From a virus (taxonomy: Duplodnaviria > Heunggongvirae > Uroviricota > Caudoviricetes), in IMG/VR virus record IMGVR_UViG_3300043444_000502, positions 128,001 through 167,599 of that record: 39,599 bases of DNA; one strand, written 5' to 3'. The position numbers were made by a program, and so were the translations under genes. Positions 6,987 to 19,849 of the stretch are shown piece after piece. Numbering within the stretch: position 1 is the first letter of the stretch; the number at the start of each line of letters is the position of its first letter. Under the pieces are notes generated by a model. The model saw only the letters and a program-made list of their open reading frames with translations, searched no databases and was not told the origin of the DNA.

Positions 6987-7095
6987 AATCAATAACTTGC
7001 AACGGGCCCTTTTAAGGGCCCTAATTTTTTCACAGGATGAAATGCTCTTAGATGACGAGTCGTCCGTGCAAGTTATTGATATCATTGGACTTTTT
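6987..7095. repeat. non-coding element with two inverted IHF-consensus boxes and a GGGCCC hairpin
   Basis: AATCAATAACTTG (6987-6999) and, on the minus strand, TATCAATAACTTG (7069-7081) match WATCAANNNNTTR; GGGCCCTT-TT-AAGGGCCC hairpin. Confidence 0.7.
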
Positions 7096-7123: not shown

Positions 7124-7152
7124 TGTACAAACAGCATGTTTTAGGGTATAAT
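7124..7152 (+). promoter_or_regulatory. early promoter
   Basis: TGTACA-N17-TATAAT. Confidence 0.85.
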
Positions 7153-7180: not shown

Positions 7181-7471
7181 ATGAAAAAGCTAAAGTTTGA
7201 AGGTTTTGCAGATTGTGGAGATACAATTCGTGGATATGATTTTAAACCAATGGCTGGTCGAAATGACTGTTATATTGAAGGCGTTGTAGAACGTGTTACT
7301 GATGAAATGGGTTATAAAGCTTTCAAAGTGACTTGTACTAAAGACGTTTTCGATGGCGTTGAAAACAAAAAAGGCGATAAAGGTTCTCGAGTTGGTAAAA
7401 TTGTTTTTATTCCAATGGAAGTTAGTTTCATGGAATATGATGCTCGTATTATTAATTTATCAAAGGTTTAA
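7181..7471 (+). CDS. hypothetical early protein
   Basis: AAGGA SD directly after the early promoter. Confidence 0.8.
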   Translation: MKKLKFEGFADCGDTIRGYDFKPMAGRNDCYIEGVVERVTDEMGYKAFKVTCTKDVFDGVENKKGDKGSRVGKIVFIPMEVSFMEYDARIINLSKV

Positions 7472-7473
7472 TT

Positions 7474-7800
7474 ATGACTAAGCGTAATCGTTCTGATTCT
7501 TACATTTTTACTGCAGATCCATTGTCTGCCTTTGATATGGAAAAGATTGCTATCATTAAGAAGACTGTTAGCGCTATGAATAAAGAAGCAAAAACTGCCC
7601 ATGGTTATGCAGTTCGTCGTGCAGAATATTATGGAGAACCAATACCTAAAGCACCTATGCGTAAACGTGTCCGTTTGATGGGACGTGGACCACGCAAACA
7701 AGCTGCATTAAATGATTATGGACGTAGTCGTGCATATGATTCATATTTGCCGCAATGTCACGCAGTTCGTTTTGATGTTTATATTGCAGATGTTCGATAA
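7474..7800 (+). CDS. hypothetical early protein, homologous to a module of the 14749 polyprotein
   Basis: RSDSYIFT / KRVRLMGR / AVRFDVYI motifs. Confidence 0.8.
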   Translation: MTKRNRSDSYIFTADPLSAFDMEKIAIIKKTVSAMNKEAKTAHGYAVRRAEYYGEPIPKAPMRKRVRLMGRGPRKQAALNDYGRSRAYDSYLPQCHAVRFDVYIADVR

Positions 7801-7810
7801 GGAGAAAAAC

Positions 7811-7990
7811 GTGGCTAAAAAATATAATGATGTGACTTCAATTGTGAATGGTATTAAAGTGACACAATGTGCATATCGTGGACCTCGTGGCACAGAACGT
7901 ACGTTTCCCATGACTAAAGGATCTGTTGCAACAATGGGAGCTAAGAATGTTTCATTAATGAATCAAGGTTTTAAGAAAGGAAAAGCATGA
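7811..7990 (+). CDS. small basic hypothetical protein
   Basis: AAGGAG SD then GTG start. Confidence 0.7.
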   Translation: MAKKYNDVTSIVNGIKVTQCAYRGPRGTERTFPMTKGSVATMGAKNVSLMNQGFKKGKA

Positions 7991-8160
7991 GTAAGATGGC
8001 AGAACTTGCCTTTGAAATCGAGGATCTTCTTAGACAAGGTTATAAACCTTTGACTATAGCAGCAATGCTTAATGTTCCAGTCAAATGGGTAGATGATGTA
8101 GAAGAAGATTTGATGCAATTGGCAAATCCAAGGTTTTATGGTCCTGATTACGGAGAATAA
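7987..8160 (+). CDS. small hypothetical protein (57 aa, HTH-like), not in the ORF track
   Basis: MSKMAELAFEIEDLLRQGYKPLTIAAMLNVPVKWV..; ATGA overlap; AAGGA SD. Confidence 0.7.
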   Translation: MSKMAELAFEIEDLLRQGYKPLTIAAMLNVPVKWVDDVEEDLMQLANPRFYGPDYGE

Positions 8161-8578
8161 TGTGGTGGTTTATGTTCGTCCTTCTCGATATATGACTAGC
8201 GCTAAACGCGAAGAAGTTTATAAAGCTGCATGTTTATTTTTGAATGAACTCTTAGATGGTAAAGAAAGAAAGGTTGAAGTTGTAATTTCTGTTAGAGGAG
8301 CAGGTTTGGCAGAACATGTCGATGGATATTGTCTATGCACTGAAGAATATGACAATGGAAAACCTAAAGAAATATTTGTTGAAGTTAGAGGTGATAAAGG
8401 CTTAGATTTTCTAATTAAATGTTTAGCACATGAATTGACACACGTTTGGCAAATGATGACTGGTAGAATTGATGAGAAGACTTATCGAAATACTAATGAT
8501 CATTATAATAGTCCATGGGAAATAGAAGCACGAGAATTAGAAATGCCATTATATGAAATGTATTTAAAAAATAGTTAA
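8138..8578 (+). CDS. zincin-like metallopeptidase domain protein (true start may be GTG 8162)
   Basis: LAHELTHVWQ (HExxH) and PWEIEA. Confidence 0.75.
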   Translation: MVLITENNVVVYVRPSRYMTSAKREEVYKAACLFLNELLDGKERKVEVVISVRGAGLAEHVDGYCLCTEEYDNGKPKEIFVEVRGDKGLDFLIKCLAHELTHVWQMMTGRIDEKTYRNTNDHYNSPWEIEARELEMPLYEMYLKNS

Positions 8579-8580
8579 TC

Positions 8581-8610
8581 AAAGGGGGCAAAATATGCCC
8601 CTTCTTTTTA
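8581..8610 (+). terminator. intrinsic terminator
   Basis: GGGGCA-loop-TGCCCC followed by TTCTTTTT. Confidence 0.75.
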
Positions 8611-8611
8611 T

Positions 8612-8619
8612 TATAAATA
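8612..8619 (+). promoter_or_regulatory. T4-type late promoter
   Basis: Exact TATAAATA in an intergenic position. Confidence 0.8.
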
Positions 8620-9627: not shown

Positions 9628-9773
9628 TGTTAAGTTTTAAAGAATACTTATCGGAAGAACACGGCGCAGGTGAATGGGGAACTCCAGAACTTGTTAAGAA
9701 TTATAAGCATGATACACCAGGCGAAAGTTGTGGTTGTTCAGAATGTAAAAAGAAGAAAGATAAAGTAGAATGA
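9627..9773 (+). CDS. 48-aa putative internal head peptide, not in the ORF track
   Basis: MLSFKEYLSE capsid-targeting-like start; GAGEWGTPELVKNYKHDTPGE; coupled to both neighbours. Confidence 0.75.
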   Translation: MLSFKEYLSEEHGAGEWGTPELVKNYKHDTPGESCGCSECKKKKDKVE

Positions 9774-10924
9774 AAAAGTTTGTAGAATTTTTATCTGAAG
9801 CAACATCTGTTGATGATGAGATGTTAGGTCATCTTACACATACAAAAGATTTGCCACATGAAGCTCCACAACACGGTCATGCTGCAATAGACTTAATTCA
9901 TCAATTTCACAAACAACGCATGGGTCAAAGTAGTACAGTAGGTGCATCTTTAAAAACCGATGGCGGTTCATCAGTACACGTTATTCATGATGCTAAAGGT
10001 ATTGGTGTTTCTGATAAACATCGTATAGCGCGCGGAGTTGTTGCACGAACACCAGAAGAAATCGATCAACACTTTGGACATCAACCTCAATATGCTGCAT
10101 CTTTAAAACATTTATTAGCTCATGGCCACGAATTTGTTGGTAAAGGACATCATATACAAGGAGACTTGATGCATACTCCTGGTGATTCTACTACAAAACA
10201 AACTAAAGGCACTACATCTACAACGCCTAATAGAATTACATATAAATCAAATACAACAGCACCAGTTGGTTTCGCTGTACACACAGAAGTAACAAACGGT
10301 ATTGCTCATGCACCAACAGCAGGTGCATTAAAGAAAAGTAAGAATGTATTCGTTCCAGAACCAAAATATAAAGCTGATCCATCTACATATACAGCAGAAG
10401 ATAGAGCACATGTTGAACATCATCTTAATGCTGCACGTACTTTAATGGATAAACATACAACAGATCATCTAACTGCTGAACATATTGATCCTAAAAAAGG
10501 CGGTCACTTTACTACATACTTAAATAGAACCACACGTCGTGGTGAAGAAGCTTCAATTGATGGTTATAAAGCACATCTCCAAAGCGAAGGAGAAAAAGCT
10601 GCAAGTAAATTAAAGACAGAAGCAGGCAAGCAAAAGGCTACTGCTAAGTTTGCTGCATTATCTGCACACGTTGACCAACATAGAGAACACTTCCAACGTT
10701 CATTAGATATTCGTCATCATTTAGGTCAAGCAACAGAACACGTATTACACGGCGTAGAACATCCTGATATGGAAACAAGTATCGACGGCAAGAAATCGCA
10801 AGGCGAAGGTATTGTACTTCAAAAGAAAGATAAAGCGGGTAAGATGAGACCAGTTTCGAAACTGGTTCCTGTTAAAGTTTCTAATGCGATCTTAAACAAT
10901 CCTAGATTTGCAAAGGACAAATAA
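9770..10924 (+). CDS. ligase-like covalent nucleotidyltransferase-fold protein (DUF6267-like by recall), putative internal head protein
   Basis: MKKFVEFLSE start; KTDG, QGDLM, EGIVL and KLV motifs in ligase order. Confidence 0.6.
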   Translation: MKKFVEFLSEATSVDDEMLGHLTHTKDLPHEAPQHGHAAIDLIHQFHKQRMGQSSTVGASLKTDGGSSVHVIHDAKGIGVSDKHRIARGVVARTPEEIDQHFGHQPQYAASLKHLLAHGHEFVGKGHHIQGDLMHTPGDSTTKQTKGTTSTTPNRITYKSNTTAPVGFAVHTEVTNGIAHAPTAGALKKSKNVFVPEPKYKADPSTYTAEDRAHVEHHLNAARTLMDKHTTDHLTAEHIDPKKGGHFTTYLNRTTRRGEEASIDGYKAHLQSEGEKAASKLKTEAGKQKATAKFAALSAHVDQHREHFQRSLDIRHHLGQATEHVLHGVEHPDMETSIDGKKSQGEGIVLQKKDKAGKMRPVSKLVPVKVSNAILNNPRFAKDK

Positions 10925-11544
10925 TGCAATCATTCATAGATTTTTTATTAGAAGCTGCAGAAGCTAAGCATGCAGTATTGGCATACGGTCGTATGAATCC
11001 ACCGACAACTGGACATTTAAAAGTAATTGATAAAGTACAAGAAGTTGCTAAGTCAGTAGGTGGAGATCATCACATGGTTGTATCTCATTCTAATGATCCT
11101 AAAAAGAACCCATTAAGTAGTGATCAAAAGGTTAAACATCTTCGTCGCTATGCACCTAATGCAAATATTAAAGCTGCATCTAAAGAGAATCCAACAATCT
11201 TTAGTCACGCAGCAGAACTTCATAAATCTGGTGTAACACATCTTCATATTGTTGCGGGTTCAGATAGAGTTGCAGAATATAAAGAACGATTCAAAGCTTT
11301 AAATGGTAAACCAGATAAAAATGGAAATGTGCCATTTAATTTTAAAAAGATTACTGTACATTCTTCAGGTGAAAGAGATCCTGATGCTGAAGGAGATGCA
11401 GGTATGTCAGGTACAAAGATGAGAGAACATGCTAAAAATAAAAACTTTGCAGAGTTCAGAAAGGGTGTACCAGCTCATGTGTCAGATGAACATGCACATG
11501 AATTAATGAATGACGTTCGTAAAGGTATGGGACACACTGATTAA
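10924..11544 (+). CDS. HIGH-family nucleotidyltransferase (phage 'cytidyltransferase'), putative internal head protein
   Basis: GRMNPPTTGH, KNPL, VAGSDR, MSGTKMR; MQSFIDFLLE start. Confidence 0.85.
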   Translation: MQSFIDFLLEAAEAKHAVLAYGRMNPPTTGHLKVIDKVQEVAKSVGGDHHMVVSHSNDPKKNPLSSDQKVKHLRRYAPNANIKAASKENPTIFSHAAELHKSGVTHLHIVAGSDRVAEYKERFKALNGKPDKNGNVPFNFKKITVHSSGERDPDAEGDAGMSGTKMREHAKNKNFAEFRKGVPAHVSDEHAHELMNDVRKGMGHTD

Positions 11545-11807: not shown

Positions 11808-11815
11808 TATAAATA
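11808..11815 (+). promoter_or_regulatory. T4-type late promoter
   Basis: Exact TATAAATA, intergenic. Confidence 0.8.
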
Positions 11816-12342: not shown

Positions 12343-13233
12343 ATGAAAAATTTTAAAGAATATCTTAAAGAAACTAGTGGTACTATTAGTATCACCTTTG
12401 GTAATTTTAATCCACCAACAATTGAACATGAAAAGCTATTAAAGCGATTACAAGAAACTGCAAGCGGCGGAGCTTTAAGAGTTTATACATCACAGGAATG
12501 TAATGAGCATTTCCCTCTAGACTATGATAATAAAATCAAGTTTATGCGCAAAGCTTTTCCAAGATATGCGCGCAATATTATTAGTGATGCAAAAATTACA
12601 GATTTATATTCAGCGTTAACATCTTTATATGAACAAGGTTATAAACATGTTAATATTGTAATGCCAAACATAACTGACATTCTTAAAGAGTGTGTTATAA
12701 AAGAGAATGGTATATTAAACGAAAATAAAAAATTATATAACTTTAAAAATATTAATTTTATTTCTGTTGATATTCATGAAAATACATTAGAAGAAAAAAT
12801 GATTGAAGCTGCTAAGAATAATAGTTTTGATGTTTTTTCTAAAAATTTACCACAAGCTTCTTTAAAAGAAAGCCACAAATTATTTAATGCGATTCGCACA
12901 GCTTATGGTTTAAAAGAATCATTTAATTTCAGACAGCATATTCAATTGCCAACTCTTTCGAAAGAAAGAGAAGCATATATCAACGGTGATTTATTTAAAA
13001 TTGGCGATGTCATTGAAATTAAAGAAACAAAAGAAATCGGTCAAGTAAAACGTTTAGGTTCTAATTATGTTATTATTGAAACATATGAAGGACATAAACA
13101 ACGTAAATGGCTTAAAGATGTTATTAAGGTTGAAGAAGCAGTCGTTAATAAATTATTAGGCGAAAAAACTTGTCAACCTAAAAAGAAAATTAAAGCCTTT
13201 AAAGAAGGTATGTCAACATTCGATGGGAAATAA
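12343..13233 (+). CDS. degenerate HIGH nucleotidyltransferase plus C-terminal beta-barrel domain, putative internal protein
   Basis: GNFNPPTIEH but no GSDR or SxxKMR; REAYINGDLFKIGD...KWLKDV tail; MKNFKEYLKE start. Confidence 0.7.
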   Translation: MKNFKEYLKETSGTISITFGNFNPPTIEHEKLLKRLQETASGGALRVYTSQECNEHFPLDYDNKIKFMRKAFPRYARNIISDAKITDLYSALTSLYEQGYKHVNIVMPNITDILKECVIKENGILNENKKLYNFKNINFISVDIHENTLEEKMIEAAKNNSFDVFSKNLPQASLKESHKLFNAIRTAYGLKESFNFRQHIQLPTLSKEREAYINGDLFKIGDVIEIKETKEIGQVKRLGSNYVIIETYEGHKQRKWLKDVIKVEEAVVNKLLGEKTCQPKKKIKAFKEGMSTFDGK

Positions 13234-13234
13234 G

Positions 13235-14317
13235 ATGGCGAAAACGTTAAAACAATTCTTAGAAGCTAAGTATATAACAACAGCTGATTATAGAATTTCT
13301 GCTTCAGGTAGAAAAGTTCACGGTCGTAAAAAGATTGCTGATACAAAATATAATGACGAAGATGGTGACGGAGATATTGATAAAGATGATATTAAAATTG
13401 CTGCTCGTCGCGATGTGAAAGAAGAGACTATTGAAGAAGCTGTATCTGTTAAAAAGCAAGATTATTCTTGGGGTAAAATGGTAACAGTTCATCATGGTTC
13501 TGACACATCATATCCTTTACATCCAGAACATCAAGAAGCAATTAAAAAATTAAAAGATGGTGAGCATACATCTTTTACTGATGAAACTAATCGTAAAGTA
13601 ACTGCTCATCGCGAAGGTGATAGCGTACATCTTTCTAGTAAAGGTACAAGTAAAAAAACTACTATTGCACATAGCCATTTCAATGAATCAGTTAATAAGT
13701 CTGATATTCCAGCATATCTTCGCAAGAAAACTGGAGATCAATTAACAACTAAAGATTTAGAAAAAGAACGTACAAAGAATCGTTCACATCCAGAAACTCT
13801 TAAGAAAATTAATGGCACAGAAGTTAAAGAAGAAACTGAGCAATTATCAGAAGTTTCTGGCAATATGTTAAAGACTAAAGAAGATGCTCGTCTTTTACAA
13901 CTTGCTCGTTTAGGTTTATTAGATAAAGACAGCATGGCTTTATTCAGAGTTTCAATGCAAAATTTAAAAGCTGATAAACAATTGTCGATTAATCAACGTG
14001 AACTTTTATTATCAGTCTACACAGATTTGGTAAATATTGTTACAGGTGATGATAGCGTATTTCAAAAAGTAAAGATTGACGTTCAACGTGAATCTGTAGA
14101 AGATACACATGAAATTGCTATTAATCACGCTGATAAACCAAAAAATGTTGATGCAACAAAAGCATTATTAAAACAACATAATGCTGTTCACTCTGATACG
14201 AGTGATAAATCAACATACTTTAAAGTGCATTCATCACAAGTTAATTCTTTGAAGAAACATTTAAAAGCTCAAGGTTTAAATGTTGATCATTATGTTAATG
14301 GCGAATATCGTGGATAA
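13235..14317 (+). CDS. modular putative internal head polyprotein
   Basis: MAKTLKQFLE start; VKEETIEE, FNES, VKEETEQLSE, QRES linkers. Confidence 0.7.
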   Translation: MAKTLKQFLEAKYITTADYRISASGRKVHGRKKIADTKYNDEDGDGDIDKDDIKIAARRDVKEETIEEAVSVKKQDYSWGKMVTVHHGSDTSYPLHPEHQEAIKKLKDGEHTSFTDETNRKVTAHREGDSVHLSSKGTSKKTTIAHSHFNESVNKSDIPAYLRKKTGDQLTTKDLEKERTKNRSHPETLKKINGTEVKEETEQLSEVSGNMLKTKEDARLLQLARLGLLDKDSMALFRVSMQNLKADKQLSINQRELLLSVYTDLVNIVTGDDSVFQKVKIDVQRESVEDTHEIAINHADKPKNVDATKALLKQHNAVHSDTSDKSTYFKVHSSQVNSLKKHLKAQGLNVDHYVNGEYRG

Positions 14318-14336
14318 TTCTTCGGAAGAAATTTGT

Positions 14337-14738
14337 ATGTCTGTTATCGAAAATGTAAATCTAGAGAGAATTGCGAAATTGGAAACGCAAGTAGAAACCA
14401 TTAAAGAAGATGTACGAGAAGTGAAGGATGATATTAAAGAACTTCATTCGCGTATTACCACAGGCAATCGAGAAATTATAGAAAAAATCGATGCTATGGA
14501 AACACGTTTAGATGAAAAGAGTACAGCAGCAGCTAAAAATGCTAAAGATCAGCATGACTCTATAAAAAAAGATGTGTTAGAAGAAATGAAAACAATGACA
14601 AAAACATTAGATAATGATATTAATAAAGTATCATCAAGAGTTGATATTTTGGAAAGATGGCGTTGGATGATTGTTGGTGGCGCTATTGTATTAGGTTACG
14701 TTTTAGGTAACACCAACATTCTCAATTATTTTAAATAA
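14337..14738 (+). CDS. coiled-coil protein with C-terminal TM helix (XhlA/holin-like architecture)
   Basis: Heptad-rich body; LERWRWMIVGGAIVLGYVL. Confidence 0.65.
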   Translation: MSVIENVNLERIAKLETQVETIKEDVREVKDDIKELHSRITTGNREIIEKIDAMETRLDEKSTAAAKNAKDQHDSIKKDVLEEMKTMTKTLDNDINKVSSRVDILERWRWMIVGGAIVLGYVLGNTNILNYFK

Positions 14739-14748
14739 GGAAACTAAT

Positions 14749-16578
14749 ATGGTTTGGGGTATTTTTAAGAAAGATACAATTTCTGATGCGTATCTAAAAA
14801 TGAAAGCTAAAAAAGCTGACACAGTAAATGAAGAAACAGAACAACTTGATGAGCTTAGTATTGGCGCTTTGAAGTCTTATATTAAAGGTGCTAAGGCTAG
14901 TAAGAAATTTGAAACTGATGTGCACAGCACAGCAGCCCGCAAAAATGATTGGGTGATGGCGTCTGACGCTCATCAAACATTGAACAAGCGCAAAGAAGGC
15001 ATTAAAGCTGCAAAGGCTAAGTTAAATAAAGAAGAAACTGAAACTGAGGCTGAACTATCTGAAAAGATTATTGTTGACAAAGATGGTAATAAGATTGGTG
15101 GCGGTACAGTCTTTGATAAATTAAAGAATAAACCAATTAGTTTCAAACCAAAGGCAGATGACAAAGAAGAAAAGTCTGAAGTTAAAGAAGCTGCTGAAGA
15201 TTTAGTTGAATATGAATCTAAAGACGGTGTATATAGACATCAGGCAAAAGCTGGTCGTTATGGCGGTTCAGAAAAAGAAAATGATTATGTAAAAGGTCCT
15301 TCTAATAAAGATCTAGAAAAGATTGAAAAAGAAAAAAAGAAAGAAAAAGTTGAAGAAGCTAAAGCAGTTAATACGCAATCTGCTCGTGATGAATTGAGCA
15401 AACGCCCACGCAAAGAACTTACTGGTAAAGATGCTGAAGATAAGAAGAAAGAATCTGATGATGCTTGGGAACGTTTAATGGCTCACGCAGCAGCACAAGG
15501 CAAACCAGTTAAAGAAGAAGCTGCATACAAACCAACTGGTTCTAAATCAGATTCTCCAGGTTTCCAAGCTTATTTAGCTGCACGTCGTAAAGCTAAAGAA
15601 CAAAAAGTTGTTAAAGAAGAATTAGAAGAACTTGAAGACGGTACATTGTATGATGGTTCAGATATGTTAGGTGAAGCACAAGCTCGTTATAGTTCTTCAT
15701 ATCAATTCACTCACAAACCAGGTGATGCAGAATCAGAGAAGAAATTATCTGATCTAAAGGCACAACATAAAGGTACTGGTAAGCGTGTTGTTCTACAGGG
15801 TCGTTTAGGTAAAGATAATCCAAACGCACACAAGTATTCTAAAGCAAACTGGGGAAAACCAGGTAGCGCATCATCAGGTGCACATACACATCAACGTATT
15901 AAGAAAGCAGATGCTGCACACCATGACGTTTATGTTTATGACAAAGCTGATACACAATATGAATATGATTCTATTATTAGCGAAGTGCTATCTAAAGATG
16001 CAAGCGCTGGTCAATGGATTTCTGATTTTATTAAATCAGATAATCCTAAATTCGCTGGTGATTCAAATGAAAAGCGCAAAGAGCGTGCTTTAGCTGCTTA
16101 CTATGCAGCGCAGAAGAATGAGTCTCGTGACTTTGATTTTTATGCAGAATATAGTGAATATATACAAGAGGTAGCACAACCAGAGATTGTTAAAGGCGGT
16201 GCTAAAGAAATTAAACATGCTAACATGAAGGATAAACAACAACATGCAGAAATTATGGAACCTCATTCAAAAGGTGAAGCAGATTTTCTCGATCAACACT
16301 CAGTCAAAGTTACAGACGACCCAACCCAAGGAAAACTTGACGCAGGAAAAACTCCAAGCGCCACAAAGCCAACAGGTAAAGGTGCAGGTAAGTACGACGG
16401 AGACTCAAAGCTTTCCAGTAAAGACAAAGCAGACGTCAAAGAAGAAATCATCAAAGGCGGTAAAACAGCCACAGGTGGAGACTGCGAAGAAATCGACACA
16501 ACCCCGCAAGACCCAACAGACCAAAAAGCCAACGCAAAGAAAAAATTCAAAAGCTTCAGCTTAAGTCTTGGTAAGTAA
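14749..16578 (+). CDS. modular putative internal head polyprotein (609 aa)
   Basis: AAGGA SD; more than ten (L/I/V)xE acidic linkers separating short modules. Confidence 0.75.
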   Translation: MVWGIFKKDTISDAYLKMKAKKADTVNEETEQLDELSIGALKSYIKGAKASKKFETDVHSTAARKNDWVMASDAHQTLNKRKEGIKAAKAKLNKEETETEAELSEKIIVDKDGNKIGGGTVFDKLKNKPISFKPKADDKEEKSEVKEAAEDLVEYESKDGVYRHQAKAGRYGGSEKENDYVKGPSNKDLEKIEKEKKKEKVEEAKAVNTQSARDELSKRPRKELTGKDAEDKKKESDDAWERLMAHAAAQGKPVKEEAAYKPTGSKSDSPGFQAYLAARRKAKEQKVVKEELEELEDGTLYDGSDMLGEAQARYSSSYQFTHKPGDAESEKKLSDLKAQHKGTGKRVVLQGRLGKDNPNAHKYSKANWGKPGSASSGAHTHQRIKKADAAHHDVYVYDKADTQYEYDSIISEVLSKDASAGQWISDFIKSDNPKFAGDSNEKRKERALAAYYAAQKNESRDFDFYAEYSEYIQEVAQPEIVKGGAKEIKHANMKDKQQHAEIMEPHSKGEADFLDQHSVKVTDDPTQGKLDAGKTPSATKPTGKGAGKYDGDSKLSSKDKADVKEEIIKGGKTATGGDCEEIDTTPQDPTDQKANAKKKFKSFSLSLGK

Positions 16579-16580
16579 TA

Positions 16581-16609
16581 GGTAGGGAGGAAACTCCCTA
16601 CTTTCTTTT
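16581..16609 (+). terminator. intrinsic terminator
   Basis: GTAGGGAG-GAAA-CTCCCTAC-TTTCTTTT. Confidence 0.85.
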
Positions 16610-17596: not shown

Positions 17597-19849
17597 ATGC
17601 CAGTAGATCCATCAATTCAACGTAAAGTTGATTCACTAAGTTCTGAAGCAGAAAAGCTTCGTGCTCAACATCAAGCTACGCAATCTGCACAATCAGATAA
17701 ACTTAAGAATGATTTAGAAATGCTTAAGAATAAAAAAGAACAAATGCTTGATGCTGAGAAAAAAAGATCTGCTAATTTGGCAAATCAATCAGAAAATTCT
17801 GTATATGATGTTACAGAACTGATTGATGCTATGCTAAATGAAAAGGCTGCAACTGGTGGATTTGATTATGAAAAGCAAGTAAATGATACTCTTAAGAAAA
17901 TGGGTAAAGCACATCCAGATTCTGGTACTGCTGGATCTTCAGCTGATGCGCCTGATGCTAAGTTCACACACAATGGTGAAGAACATAATTTAGAGATTAA
18001 ACAGAACAGCAAAGCTATGTATGGTCAAATCGAGCTTAAACATAATGGTAAAGAATGGGATATTTCAGAACGTTCTAAAAAGAAATATCCAGAAACATAT
18101 AAAGCTATTCATGGTTCTGGTTTCTTAAAGAAAGTTAACAAACAATGGGAAGCACCAACTGGAGATTATGATGAAGACCTAAAAATGGGTAACGTTTATC
18201 ATGATCATCCGGATGCAGAACCAATTAAAGCACATTATGGTAAAGATCGCAAAACCAATTACATTCAAATTGGAGGAGGTCATGGTTTTTATCACACTGG
18301 TAATGATGCTGCAGGATTAGGATCTCCAGAATTAGACGGTAAAACTCAATTTAGAGCACGTATGAAATATCGTGGAACTGATAAAAAAACCGGTAAGAAA
18401 AAATATGGTGCATTAATTGTTATGGGTTTAAAAGATGCATCTAAATCTCATCATAATTTAGATGATCCAAATCAAAAAGAATGGATTAATTATTTAATGA
18501 ATGGTTCACAAGTCATTTCTGAAACAGCATTAAATTCTAAAGATCCTCATGGCGATTATCAAGCTAAGCGTAAAGCATTACATGATCTATCTTTAAATAA
18601 AGATGTCGATCAAAAAGAAGTACAACAAAGACGTTTAGATCTAGACAAAGAATATTCAAAATATAAGAAAGAAAACACTATGTATGATTTAGATTCTCTT
18701 AATGAGAATTTTACGCTTGGTTTCCAACATGGACAAGCAGAAGAAATAAAAAAGAATCCATACGAAAAAGGTAGTGATGAATATAATCGTTATGAAGATG
18801 GGTTTTGGCAAGGTTTAAATCATCGCAGAGTTACACAAGTGCACTTAGAATCAAAAGCACCTGTAGCACCAGCACCTTTCATTCATAGAATTGCTGTTAC
18901 TGTTTCTGAACCAGATCATCCAGCTGTAACAAAGCGCAATGAAACTCAACAAAAATTTGTTAGAGTGCATCATCATACAGACAACAAAGAAGATGCAGTT
19001 GCACGCGGCAAAAAACATTTTGCCAAAAAAGGTTATAAAGTACATGACGCACATCATGTTAGCATGAATGAAGCTACTAGTACAGTGAAAACGGATAAAG
19101 ATGGAAAAGTAGTTTCGTGGTCTCATGAAGGCGATTGGAAAAAAACAAATCCTAAAAAAAATCCAGAAGGTAAAGTACATAATTTAACAGGTCAAGCGTT
19201 AAAACAATCTCAGAAATTAAATAAAGAAGAAGTAGAATTAGAAGAAGCGAGAAGTGTCGCTGATAGATTAGCAGCTGCAAAAGAAATGTATGATAGCGCA
19301 ATGAGATCTGCACGTAGTCCTGCTGAACGCGCTCAAGCAAAAGAAACTTATGATAACGTTGTTAAACGCTTAAAAGAAGAAGTTGCTGCTAATAATGTTG
19401 GTGGCGGAGCAATTGCTGGTACACAAGGTGACGCTGGTAAAAAGGTTGTAATGACTAAACAACCATTAAAACGCAAACTTGTTTCTTTTAAAGAAGCGTG
19501 TGATTGTTGGAAAGGTTATAAGCGTAAACCTGGAACTAAACCATGTGAAAAGGATTCATGCGTAAAAGAAGACTCTGAACTGGATGAAGCCGCAATCGAT
19601 GCTAAAGGTCATAAATCTTCTACCGGTGGATTGACACAAAAAGGTGTTGACGCATATCGTAGAGAAAATCCAGGTAGTAAATTACAAACTGCAGTAACAA
19701 CTAAACCATCTAAACTAGATCCGGATAGTAAAGACGCTAAACGTCGTAAATCATTTTGTGCACGTATGAGTGGTGTAGAAGGACCAATGAAAGATGAAAA
19801 TGGTAAACCAACTCGTAAAGCACTTGCTTTAAGAAAGTGGAATTGTTAA
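17597..19849 (+). CDS. modular polyprotein with a PD-(D/E)xK nuclease-like domain and a C-terminal DUF6321-like module
   Basis: GFDYE..APD..LEIK; GGLTQKG..NPGSKL..RRKSFCARM..ALRKWNC; LNE/ISE/MNE/LEE/LKE/LDE linkers. Confidence 0.75.
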   Translation: MPVDPSIQRKVDSLSSEAEKLRAQHQATQSAQSDKLKNDLEMLKNKKEQMLDAEKKRSANLANQSENSVYDVTELIDAMLNEKAATGGFDYEKQVNDTLKKMGKAHPDSGTAGSSADAPDAKFTHNGEEHNLEIKQNSKAMYGQIELKHNGKEWDISERSKKKYPETYKAIHGSGFLKKVNKQWEAPTGDYDEDLKMGNVYHDHPDAEPIKAHYGKDRKTNYIQIGGGHGFYHTGNDAAGLGSPELDGKTQFRARMKYRGTDKKTGKKKYGALIVMGLKDASKSHHNLDDPNQKEWINYLMNGSQVISETALNSKDPHGDYQAKRKALHDLSLNKDVDQKEVQQRRLDLDKEYSKYKKENTMYDLDSLNENFTLGFQHGQAEEIKKNPYEKGSDEYNRYEDGFWQGLNHRRVTQVHLESKAPVAPAPFIHRIAVTVSEPDHPAVTKRNETQQKFVRVHHHTDNKEDAVARGKKHFAKKGYKVHDAHHVSMNEATSTVKTDKDGKVVSWSHEGDWKKTNPKKNPEGKVHNLTGQALKQSQKLNKEEVELEEARSVADRLAAAKEMYDSAMRSARSPAERAQAKETYDNVVKRLKEEVAANNVGGGAIAGTQGDAGKKVVMTKQPLKRKLVSFKEACDCWKGYKRKPGTKPCEKDSCVKEDSELDEAAIDAKGHKSSTGGLTQKGVDAYRRENPGSKLQTAVTTKPSKLDPDSKDAKRRKSFCARMSGVEGPMKDENGKPTRKALALRKWNC

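Follow-up and report, generated by a model that had tools for sequence, protein, structure and literature searches.

Does a phage supply the same small domain twice, once as a gene of its own and once inside a larger protein? The question is raised by a stretch of viral DNA of 39,599 nucleotides (the window), the last 39.6 kb of the 167.6-kb virus record IMGVR_UViG_3300043444_000502 (judged 99% complete). A sequence-only reading of this DNA had claimed that a module of a 609-aa protein (15676–15945) is a homologue of the free-standing ORF 7474–7800, that putative protease sites bound the module, and that one activity would be supplied both pre-made in the virion and from an early promoter. As detailed below, that reading is partly supported.

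The phage genome encodes a Peptidase_S77 protein (gp21-type prohead protease, PF03420; 136.5 bits, E = 6.6e-41) and a Gp23 major capsid protein (E = 4e-151), which together mark the phage as T4-like; both genes lie ~45 kb upstream of the gene for the 609-aa protein. The features of the window on which the argument draws are these:

7004–7021, + strand: terminator-like hairpin (7 pairs, 6 of them GC, then a T run) that ends a replication and nucleotide gene block encoding UvsX, a gp41-like helicase and ThyX
7124–7152, + strand: sigma-70-like promoter that matches the consensus at 10 of 12 positions; a small-gene cluster, 7181–8578, follows it
7474–7800, + strand: free-standing paralogue of 108 aa (pI 10.05) with a GRGPR-type loop and without a propeptide
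8583–8603, + strand: terminator-like hairpin closing the small-gene cluster
8612–8619, + strand: T4 late-promoter-like TATAAATA, 13 nt upstream of ORF 8632
11808–11815, + strand: second T4 late-promoter-like TATAAATA, at the head of the putative late unit of the 609-aa gene
14749–16578, + strand: 609-aa multi-module protein that includes the cassette; its remainder is acidic to neutral, at pI 6.2–6.5
15667–15675, + strand: putative gp21-type cleavage site Leu-Gly-Glu (residues 307–309; the next residue is Ala), bordering the module on its N-terminal side
15676–15975, + strand: the module, with a conserved beta-alpha-beta-beta domain at about residues 313–399 (15685–15945)
15976–15984, + strand: putative gp21-type cleavage site Ile-Ser-Glu (residues 410–412), bordering the module on its C-terminal side
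16580–16603, + strand: terminator-like hairpin directly 3′ of the 609-aa ORF

The module and the free-standing protein are distant homologues

The three collinear motif pairs on which homology had been proposed are present in both translations exactly as quoted. A pairwise BLASTP comparison of the module with the 108-aa protein is not significant alone (E = 0.12). The 108-aa ORF belongs to a family of 47 related proteins of 96–118 aa, and the module recurs in 88 further proteins of 347–1020 aa, where the conserved stretch corresponds to residues 311–402 of the 609-aa protein, near the coordinates originally drawn. Alignment of the two family profiles with hhalign, the kind of HMM-HMM check that the sequence-only reading had proposed, bore the claim out: it gave a probability of 88–90% (E = 1.7e-6 to 3.6e-6, score 38–39) and placed the three motifs in the same register, while 300 column-shuffled profiles scored 11 on average (sd 2.4, maximum 21) and reversed profiles ~11.

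Free-standing proteins of ~100 aa also bridge the two families: their N-terminal hallmark is that of the 108-aa family, and their GRLGKNNP loop and C-terminal motif are those of the module. Among the 76 loci found by scanning viral contigs with the free-standing family, those designated L069, L070 and L073 encode 101-aa proteins that match the free-standing HMM at 8e-11 and, over their full length, the module HMM at 2e-14. When all groups are aligned jointly, Val, Arg, Ala, Asp and Tyr columns are invariant, and Tyr, Phe, Thr, Arg and Leu columns nearly so. Searched against the 167.6-kb genome, the joint superfamily profile finds two matches only, at 7480–7794 (E = 2.9e-35) and 15679–15945 (E = 8.8e-29) of the window. 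The copies share about 26–32% identity over alignable stretches, and the loop that follows strand 2 is not the same, reading GRGPR in the free-standing copy and GRLGKNNP in the module; because of this strong divergence and the unlike loops, their partners may differ.

Predicted structures agree with the profile alignments. As modelled by AlphaFold (AF2), the free-standing protein (pLDDT 82.6) and the module (pLDDT 70.1) run through their secondary structure alike, from a strand, a helix and a second strand to a short helix, a short strand-turn and a last strand. They differ in the helix, which forms a long hairpin in the free-standing form and is short in the module. The motifs of the domain run SYxFT in strand 1, the helix, RVxLxGR in strand 2, the variable loop and DAxxxDVY in strand 3. 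In Foldseek searches of BFVD, the module model retrieved its own kind first and then free-standing-like proteins of 107–111 aa at ranks 2–4, and the free-standing model retrieved a 107-aa protein (59% identity), a 109-aa protein and, at rank 3, a 385-aa module-bearing protein (probability 1.00), below which the probability dropped to 0.35. The 107-aa entry is very probably the homologue from a Lake Baikal phage, since its length and its 59% identity equal those of P0033. The claimed relationship is thus upheld by the profiles, by the bridging proteins, by a predicted topology common to both models and by fold-library matches in both directions: module 15676–15945 and ORF 7474–7800 are true but distant homologues, anciently diverged paralogues of one domain of ~90 residues.

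A large family that curated libraries do not describe

A profile search of 1.84 billion cluster representatives (clusters at 50% identity) found 726 superfamily members at E ≤ 0.001, 253 of them at E ≤ 1e-10. Among the best 150 matches, 124 were new, and 91 of these measured at most 140 aa; in most of the short ones nothing precedes the domain, and the GRLGK type makes up the majority. A few have a short leader resembling a capsid targeting sequence (CTS), then hydrophobic-x-Glu, then a single domain. The remaining new members among the best 150 are long multi-module proteins. A separate GRGPR-type subgroup (P0197, P0214, P0250 and P0266) has the domain at the N-terminus and a conserved C-terminal extension of ~80 residues, a two-domain form distinct from the polyproteins.

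The curated libraries searched were Pfam-A 2025, PHROGs v4, and PDB sequences and folds. Neither copy, none of the bridging and other free-standing members tested and no part of the rest of the 609-aa protein matched a Pfam or PHROGs entry; an HMM search of PDB sequences returned nothing meaningful (best E = 0.37), and PDB fold searches gave nothing above background for either model. Megablast and tblastn searches of the GenBank phage collection, which may lack close relatives, yielded no match; neither a cultured relative nor a virion proteome came to light, and literature searches on the Lake Baikal relative and on internal-protein polyproteins of T4-like phages returned nothing about the family. 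The domain family is therefore undescribed in the Pfam, PHROGs and PDB libraries searched, and no known relative tells what the domain does. With the bridging sequences and the profile, these 726 clusters without annotation now have a family definition by which they can be annotated.

Expression timing

The sequence TATAAATA has only two matches in the 39.6-kb window, where chance alone would give 5.2, and the argument is therefore one of position, not of count. Both sites lie 13–28 nt before an ORF, the one at 8612 right after a terminator-like hairpin. The + strand gene run from these sites ends with the 609-aa ORF and the hairpin at 16580–16603, and no terminator-like site occurs on the + strand between the TATAAATA at 11808 and position 16580; ORF 14749–16578 is thus probably the last gene of a late unit begun at 11808. 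The small-gene cluster 7181–8578, which includes ORF 7474–7800, is probably early, because a single sigma-70-like site (7124–7152) precedes it between two terminator-like hairpins. Both assignments are to be read as made from consensus sites only.

Two neighbouring genes may be described here. ORF 8138–8578 (146 aa), in the probable early cluster, corresponds to PHROG 16532, a family entry without a function, and has a sub-threshold match to the Peptidase_M91 ‘effector protein’ family (E = 4.9e-4; 20.9 bits vs a cut-off of 25). Immediately 5′ of the 609-aa gene, ORF 14280–14738 encodes a 152-aa coiled-coil protein with a hydrophobic C-terminal segment; its position is kept in relatives, and its profile matches are all weak (scaffold-like, holin-like, spanin-like).

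Candidate gp21 sites and probable head packaging

In T4, gp21 cleaves after L/I-x-E, the first bond mapped being Glu-Ala; the internal proteins are addressed by propeptides of 10–19 residues, and Asp in place of Glu at the leader site blocks processing (PMC9026906). The LGE and ISE that had been named as bounds of the module do stand at its two edges as candidate sites, ISE lying 13 residues past the end of the segment first drawn (15945). Cleavage at both would release residues 310–412, a predicted fragment of 103 aa, 11.4 kDa and pI 9.4 from an otherwise acidic precursor.

The same arrangement recurs throughout the family. Hydrophobic-x-Glu is found within the 9 residues before the module in 85 of 86 relatives (15% expected), with Ala nearly always the next residue, and the first 20 residues past the module include another in 75 of 76 relatives (29% expected). 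These counts overstate independence, as the flanks have some of their ancestry in common. The linkers are Glu-rich and the motif itself is short (background 0.0225 per residue), and it holds across many different flanks. Before the domain of the free-standing forms, the 108-aa protein included, it is absent.

N-termini were compared with those of T4 IPI, IPII and IPIII taken from AF158101, in which IPII and IPIII begin MKTYQEFIAE. A T4-CTS-like N-terminus is present in 41 of 89 module-bearing proteins. The 609-aa protein itself is without a canonical T4 CTS: it starts MVWGIFKK, unlike MKTYQEFIAE, and its leader ends in Ile-Ser-Asp, not in hydrophobic-x-Glu. This type of leader is common to 20 of the 89 module-bearing relatives and may be a second kind of signal.

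Four ORFs upstream of the 609-aa gene, starting at 9770, 10924, 12343 and 13235, do have CTS-like starts (e.g. MKKFVEFLSE), which suggests a block of putatively head-loaded enzymes. Their products are a DUF6267 protein (9770–10924), a cytidylyltransferase-like protein (10924–11544), a PHROG ‘cytidyltransferase’ protein (12343–13233) and a 360-aa multi-module protein (13235–14317).

In one lineage the module is part of the gp22 scaffold. The protein P0083 is this scaffold (T4_CASP, E = 5e-71), and two independent contigs show the module-gp22 fusion among the genes of the head cluster; in these (L004 6001–7182 and L005 996–2177) the module occupies residues 40–143 of the scaffold, whose gene is directly downstream of gp21. 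Given the gp21 gene, the hydrophobic-x-Glu flanks, the CTS-like N-termini of 41 of 89 relatives and the gp22 fusion, we infer that the 609-aa protein is probably packaged into the head and cleaved by gp21.

The module behaves as a cassette, and the free-standing locus probably turns over

Capture of such modules as cassettes, as suggested in the sequence-only reading, could be examined across carriers, loci and trees. In carriers of 347–1101 aa, which also contain DUF3008, DUF5824, EF-hand-like and other segments, the position of the module ranges from the N-terminus to the far C-terminal end, and its sequence is still 60–96% identical between carriers that are otherwise quite dissimilar. The 609-aa gene occupies a slot, between a coiled-coil/TM gene and a DUF7207 gene, that could be compared directly, the presence or absence of the module in orthologous polyproteins having been named as a check: the orthologue carries the module in 3 of 9 fetched loci and lacks it in 6, so that, this window included, 4 of 10 slots have it.

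The trees, all of them unrooted, draw on 93–106 columns, and no donor is claimed from them. A 264-row tree needs at least 10 changes between free and embedded forms, 4 of which are forced by well-supported branches. In a smaller tree, made with IQ-TREE, the embedded clade joins free-standing proteins of the GRLGK type (support 99) rather than those of the type found in the window, which indicates that the phage's own free-standing gene was not the recent source of its module. By its variable position, its presence or absence in one slot and its several free/embedded switches, the module behaves as a cassette, and the cassette part of the earlier claim stands.

Shuffling in the region appears to extend further. 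ORF 17597–19849 encodes a 750-aa protein with a DUF6321 domain at its end, a piece of which exists as separate ORFs at other places in relatives (L016 12181–12561 and L075 10373–11182), pointing to additional module exchange.

At L075 (9409–9717) and L077 (433–741), the free-standing slot is occupied by a GRLGK-type allele only 31–33% identical to window 7474–7800, while the genes flanking it are 66–90% identical to those of the window. For L075 the figures are 33% for the slot, 90% for UvsX and 88% for the helicase; its module, unlike the diverged slot, is 83% identical to that of the window. It appears that one allele of the superfamily has replaced another while the locus stayed in place.

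Two proposed routes of supply and the competing explanations

The reading that we favour, with a probability of about 0.6, is that the domain would reach the host by two routes, the 108-aa copy being made early and the 609-aa precursor being packaged, cut by gp21 and its module ejected with the DNA. The basic 108-aa protein would be made in the cell early in infection. The 609-aa protein, made late, would enter the prohead core, where the gp21-type protease would cut it at the hydrophobic-x-Glu sites bordering each module; the module, freed as an 11-kDa basic internal protein, would leave the head with the DNA. The phage would in this way bring in one version of the domain at time zero and have a second one made afterwards. 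Our best guess is that the domain binds nucleic acid or a host factor, because it is basic and has Arg, Tyr and Asp residues that never change.

It is scarcely credible that the resemblance arose without common ancestry, by chance or by short motifs converging, both stretches being basic and low-complexity-like. The pairwise BLASTP value (E = 0.12) would allow it, as would the fact that neither fold is anchored by a solved structure, but a profile score of 39, where none of 300 shuffles exceeded 21, bridging sequences significant against both HMMs, structure-library matches in both directions and the recovery of both copies by one profile all speak for descent. We consider chance resemblance effectively refuted by the profile scores, the bridging sequences and the reciprocal fold-library matches. 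What happens to the 609-aa protein is a more serious matter. It could be homologous and yet stay uncut outside the head cargo, as an intact late multi-domain protein in the cytoplasm or in another virion structure, its acidic linkers serving as flexible spacers in which hydrophobic-x-Glu occurs by coincidence. The non-canonical N-terminus, with its leader ending in Asp instead of Glu, fits this explanation, as do the shortness of the motif in Glu-rich proteins (0.0225 per residue) and the place of the gene in a late-promoter block outside the head gene cluster (~45 kb from gp21 and gp23). Coincidence sits poorly, however, with a motif that is found at both module edges in nearly all relatives, whatever the flank, and is absent from the free-standing forms; CTS-like leaders in 41 of 89 relatives, one relative that is the gp22 scaffold and four CTS-like ORFs in the same late unit also weigh against it, and we judge it rather unlikely.

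Packaging, if it occurs, could also serve the head itself: the domain might be a structural or DNA-organizing component of the head core (scaffold contact, DNA condensation) and not an injected effector, with the free-standing copy doing a related housekeeping job on phage DNA and nothing directed at the host. Fusion of the module to the gp22 scaffold in one lineage is what such a role would predict, both copies are strongly basic (pI 9.4–10), and identities of 60–96% across unlike carriers are as expected for an unchanging partner. Yet the module is missing from 6 of 9 orthologous slots and is hence dispensable there, and the allele replacement at the free-standing locus (33% in L075 vs 90% for UvsX) is more like that of host-interaction genes; a purely head-directed role therefore seems to us quite improbable. 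The two-route reading can be extended, as a tentative and somewhat doubtful generalization, to a dual-route effector in T4-like phages of aquatic bacteria: an injected, gp21-released copy would act at time zero, a fast-turning-over early copy would then act on the same host pathway, and genes would move between early loci and cargo polyproteins by recombination at protease-site linkers.

Comparison with known systems

If the two-route reading is true, the cargo polyproteins of environmental T4-like phages would be modular carriers with small proteins slotted between protease sites, and a cassette protein would also exist as an ordinary, probably early gene. The free-standing form, which can be expressed and assayed alone, would then inform on the injected form.

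Among the giant phages, phiKZ, 201phi2-1 and SPN3US have many head-internal proteins that are cut after Glu by a gp21-related protease (PMC9026906). The minimal three-residue motif and the multiple sites, which in those phages lie in propeptide regions, resemble what we describe (PMC9026906), whereas the motif is S/A-x-E there and hydrophobic-x-Glu in the present 168-kb T4-like myovirus, and the cargo families are unrelated.

With T4 IPI, IPII and IPIII, the module shares small size and basic charge (about 8, 10 and 20 kDa in T4; a predicted 11.4 kDa and pI 9.4 here), a gene (late in T4, putatively late here) of a T4-like phage with a gp21-type protease, CTS-like starts (here in relatives of the carrier) and bounds of the L/I-x-E type with Ala after Glu (PMC9026906). 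Each of these proteins stands alone behind one propeptide, whereas the mature unit here would be one of several modules of a 609-aa precursor; the leader of the carrier is of another type, and there is no relation in sequence or fold. We thus propose that the module works like the T4 internal-protein class rather than call it a proven member, since the canonical leader is missing from the 609-aa protein and its presence and processing in the virion are predictions from sequence.

The division of labour that we envisage has a counterpart in the ADP-ribosyltransferases of T4, where ModA and ModB are early-expressed relatives of Alt. Alt itself is a packaged, injected and gp21-processed head protein (PMC9026906), so that one version of a family is packaged and processed and related versions are expressed after infection, as we propose here. 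Neither of the present copies has ADP-ribosyltransferase motifs or family matches in Pfam or PHROGs, and the domain, of ~90 residues, would have its packaged copy as a polyprotein cassette, unlike Alt; the parallel is used as a functional analogy only. On that footing, our proposal, if correct, would extend the Alt/Mod principle, in which packaged and early versions of one activity coexist, to a new and very widespread family.
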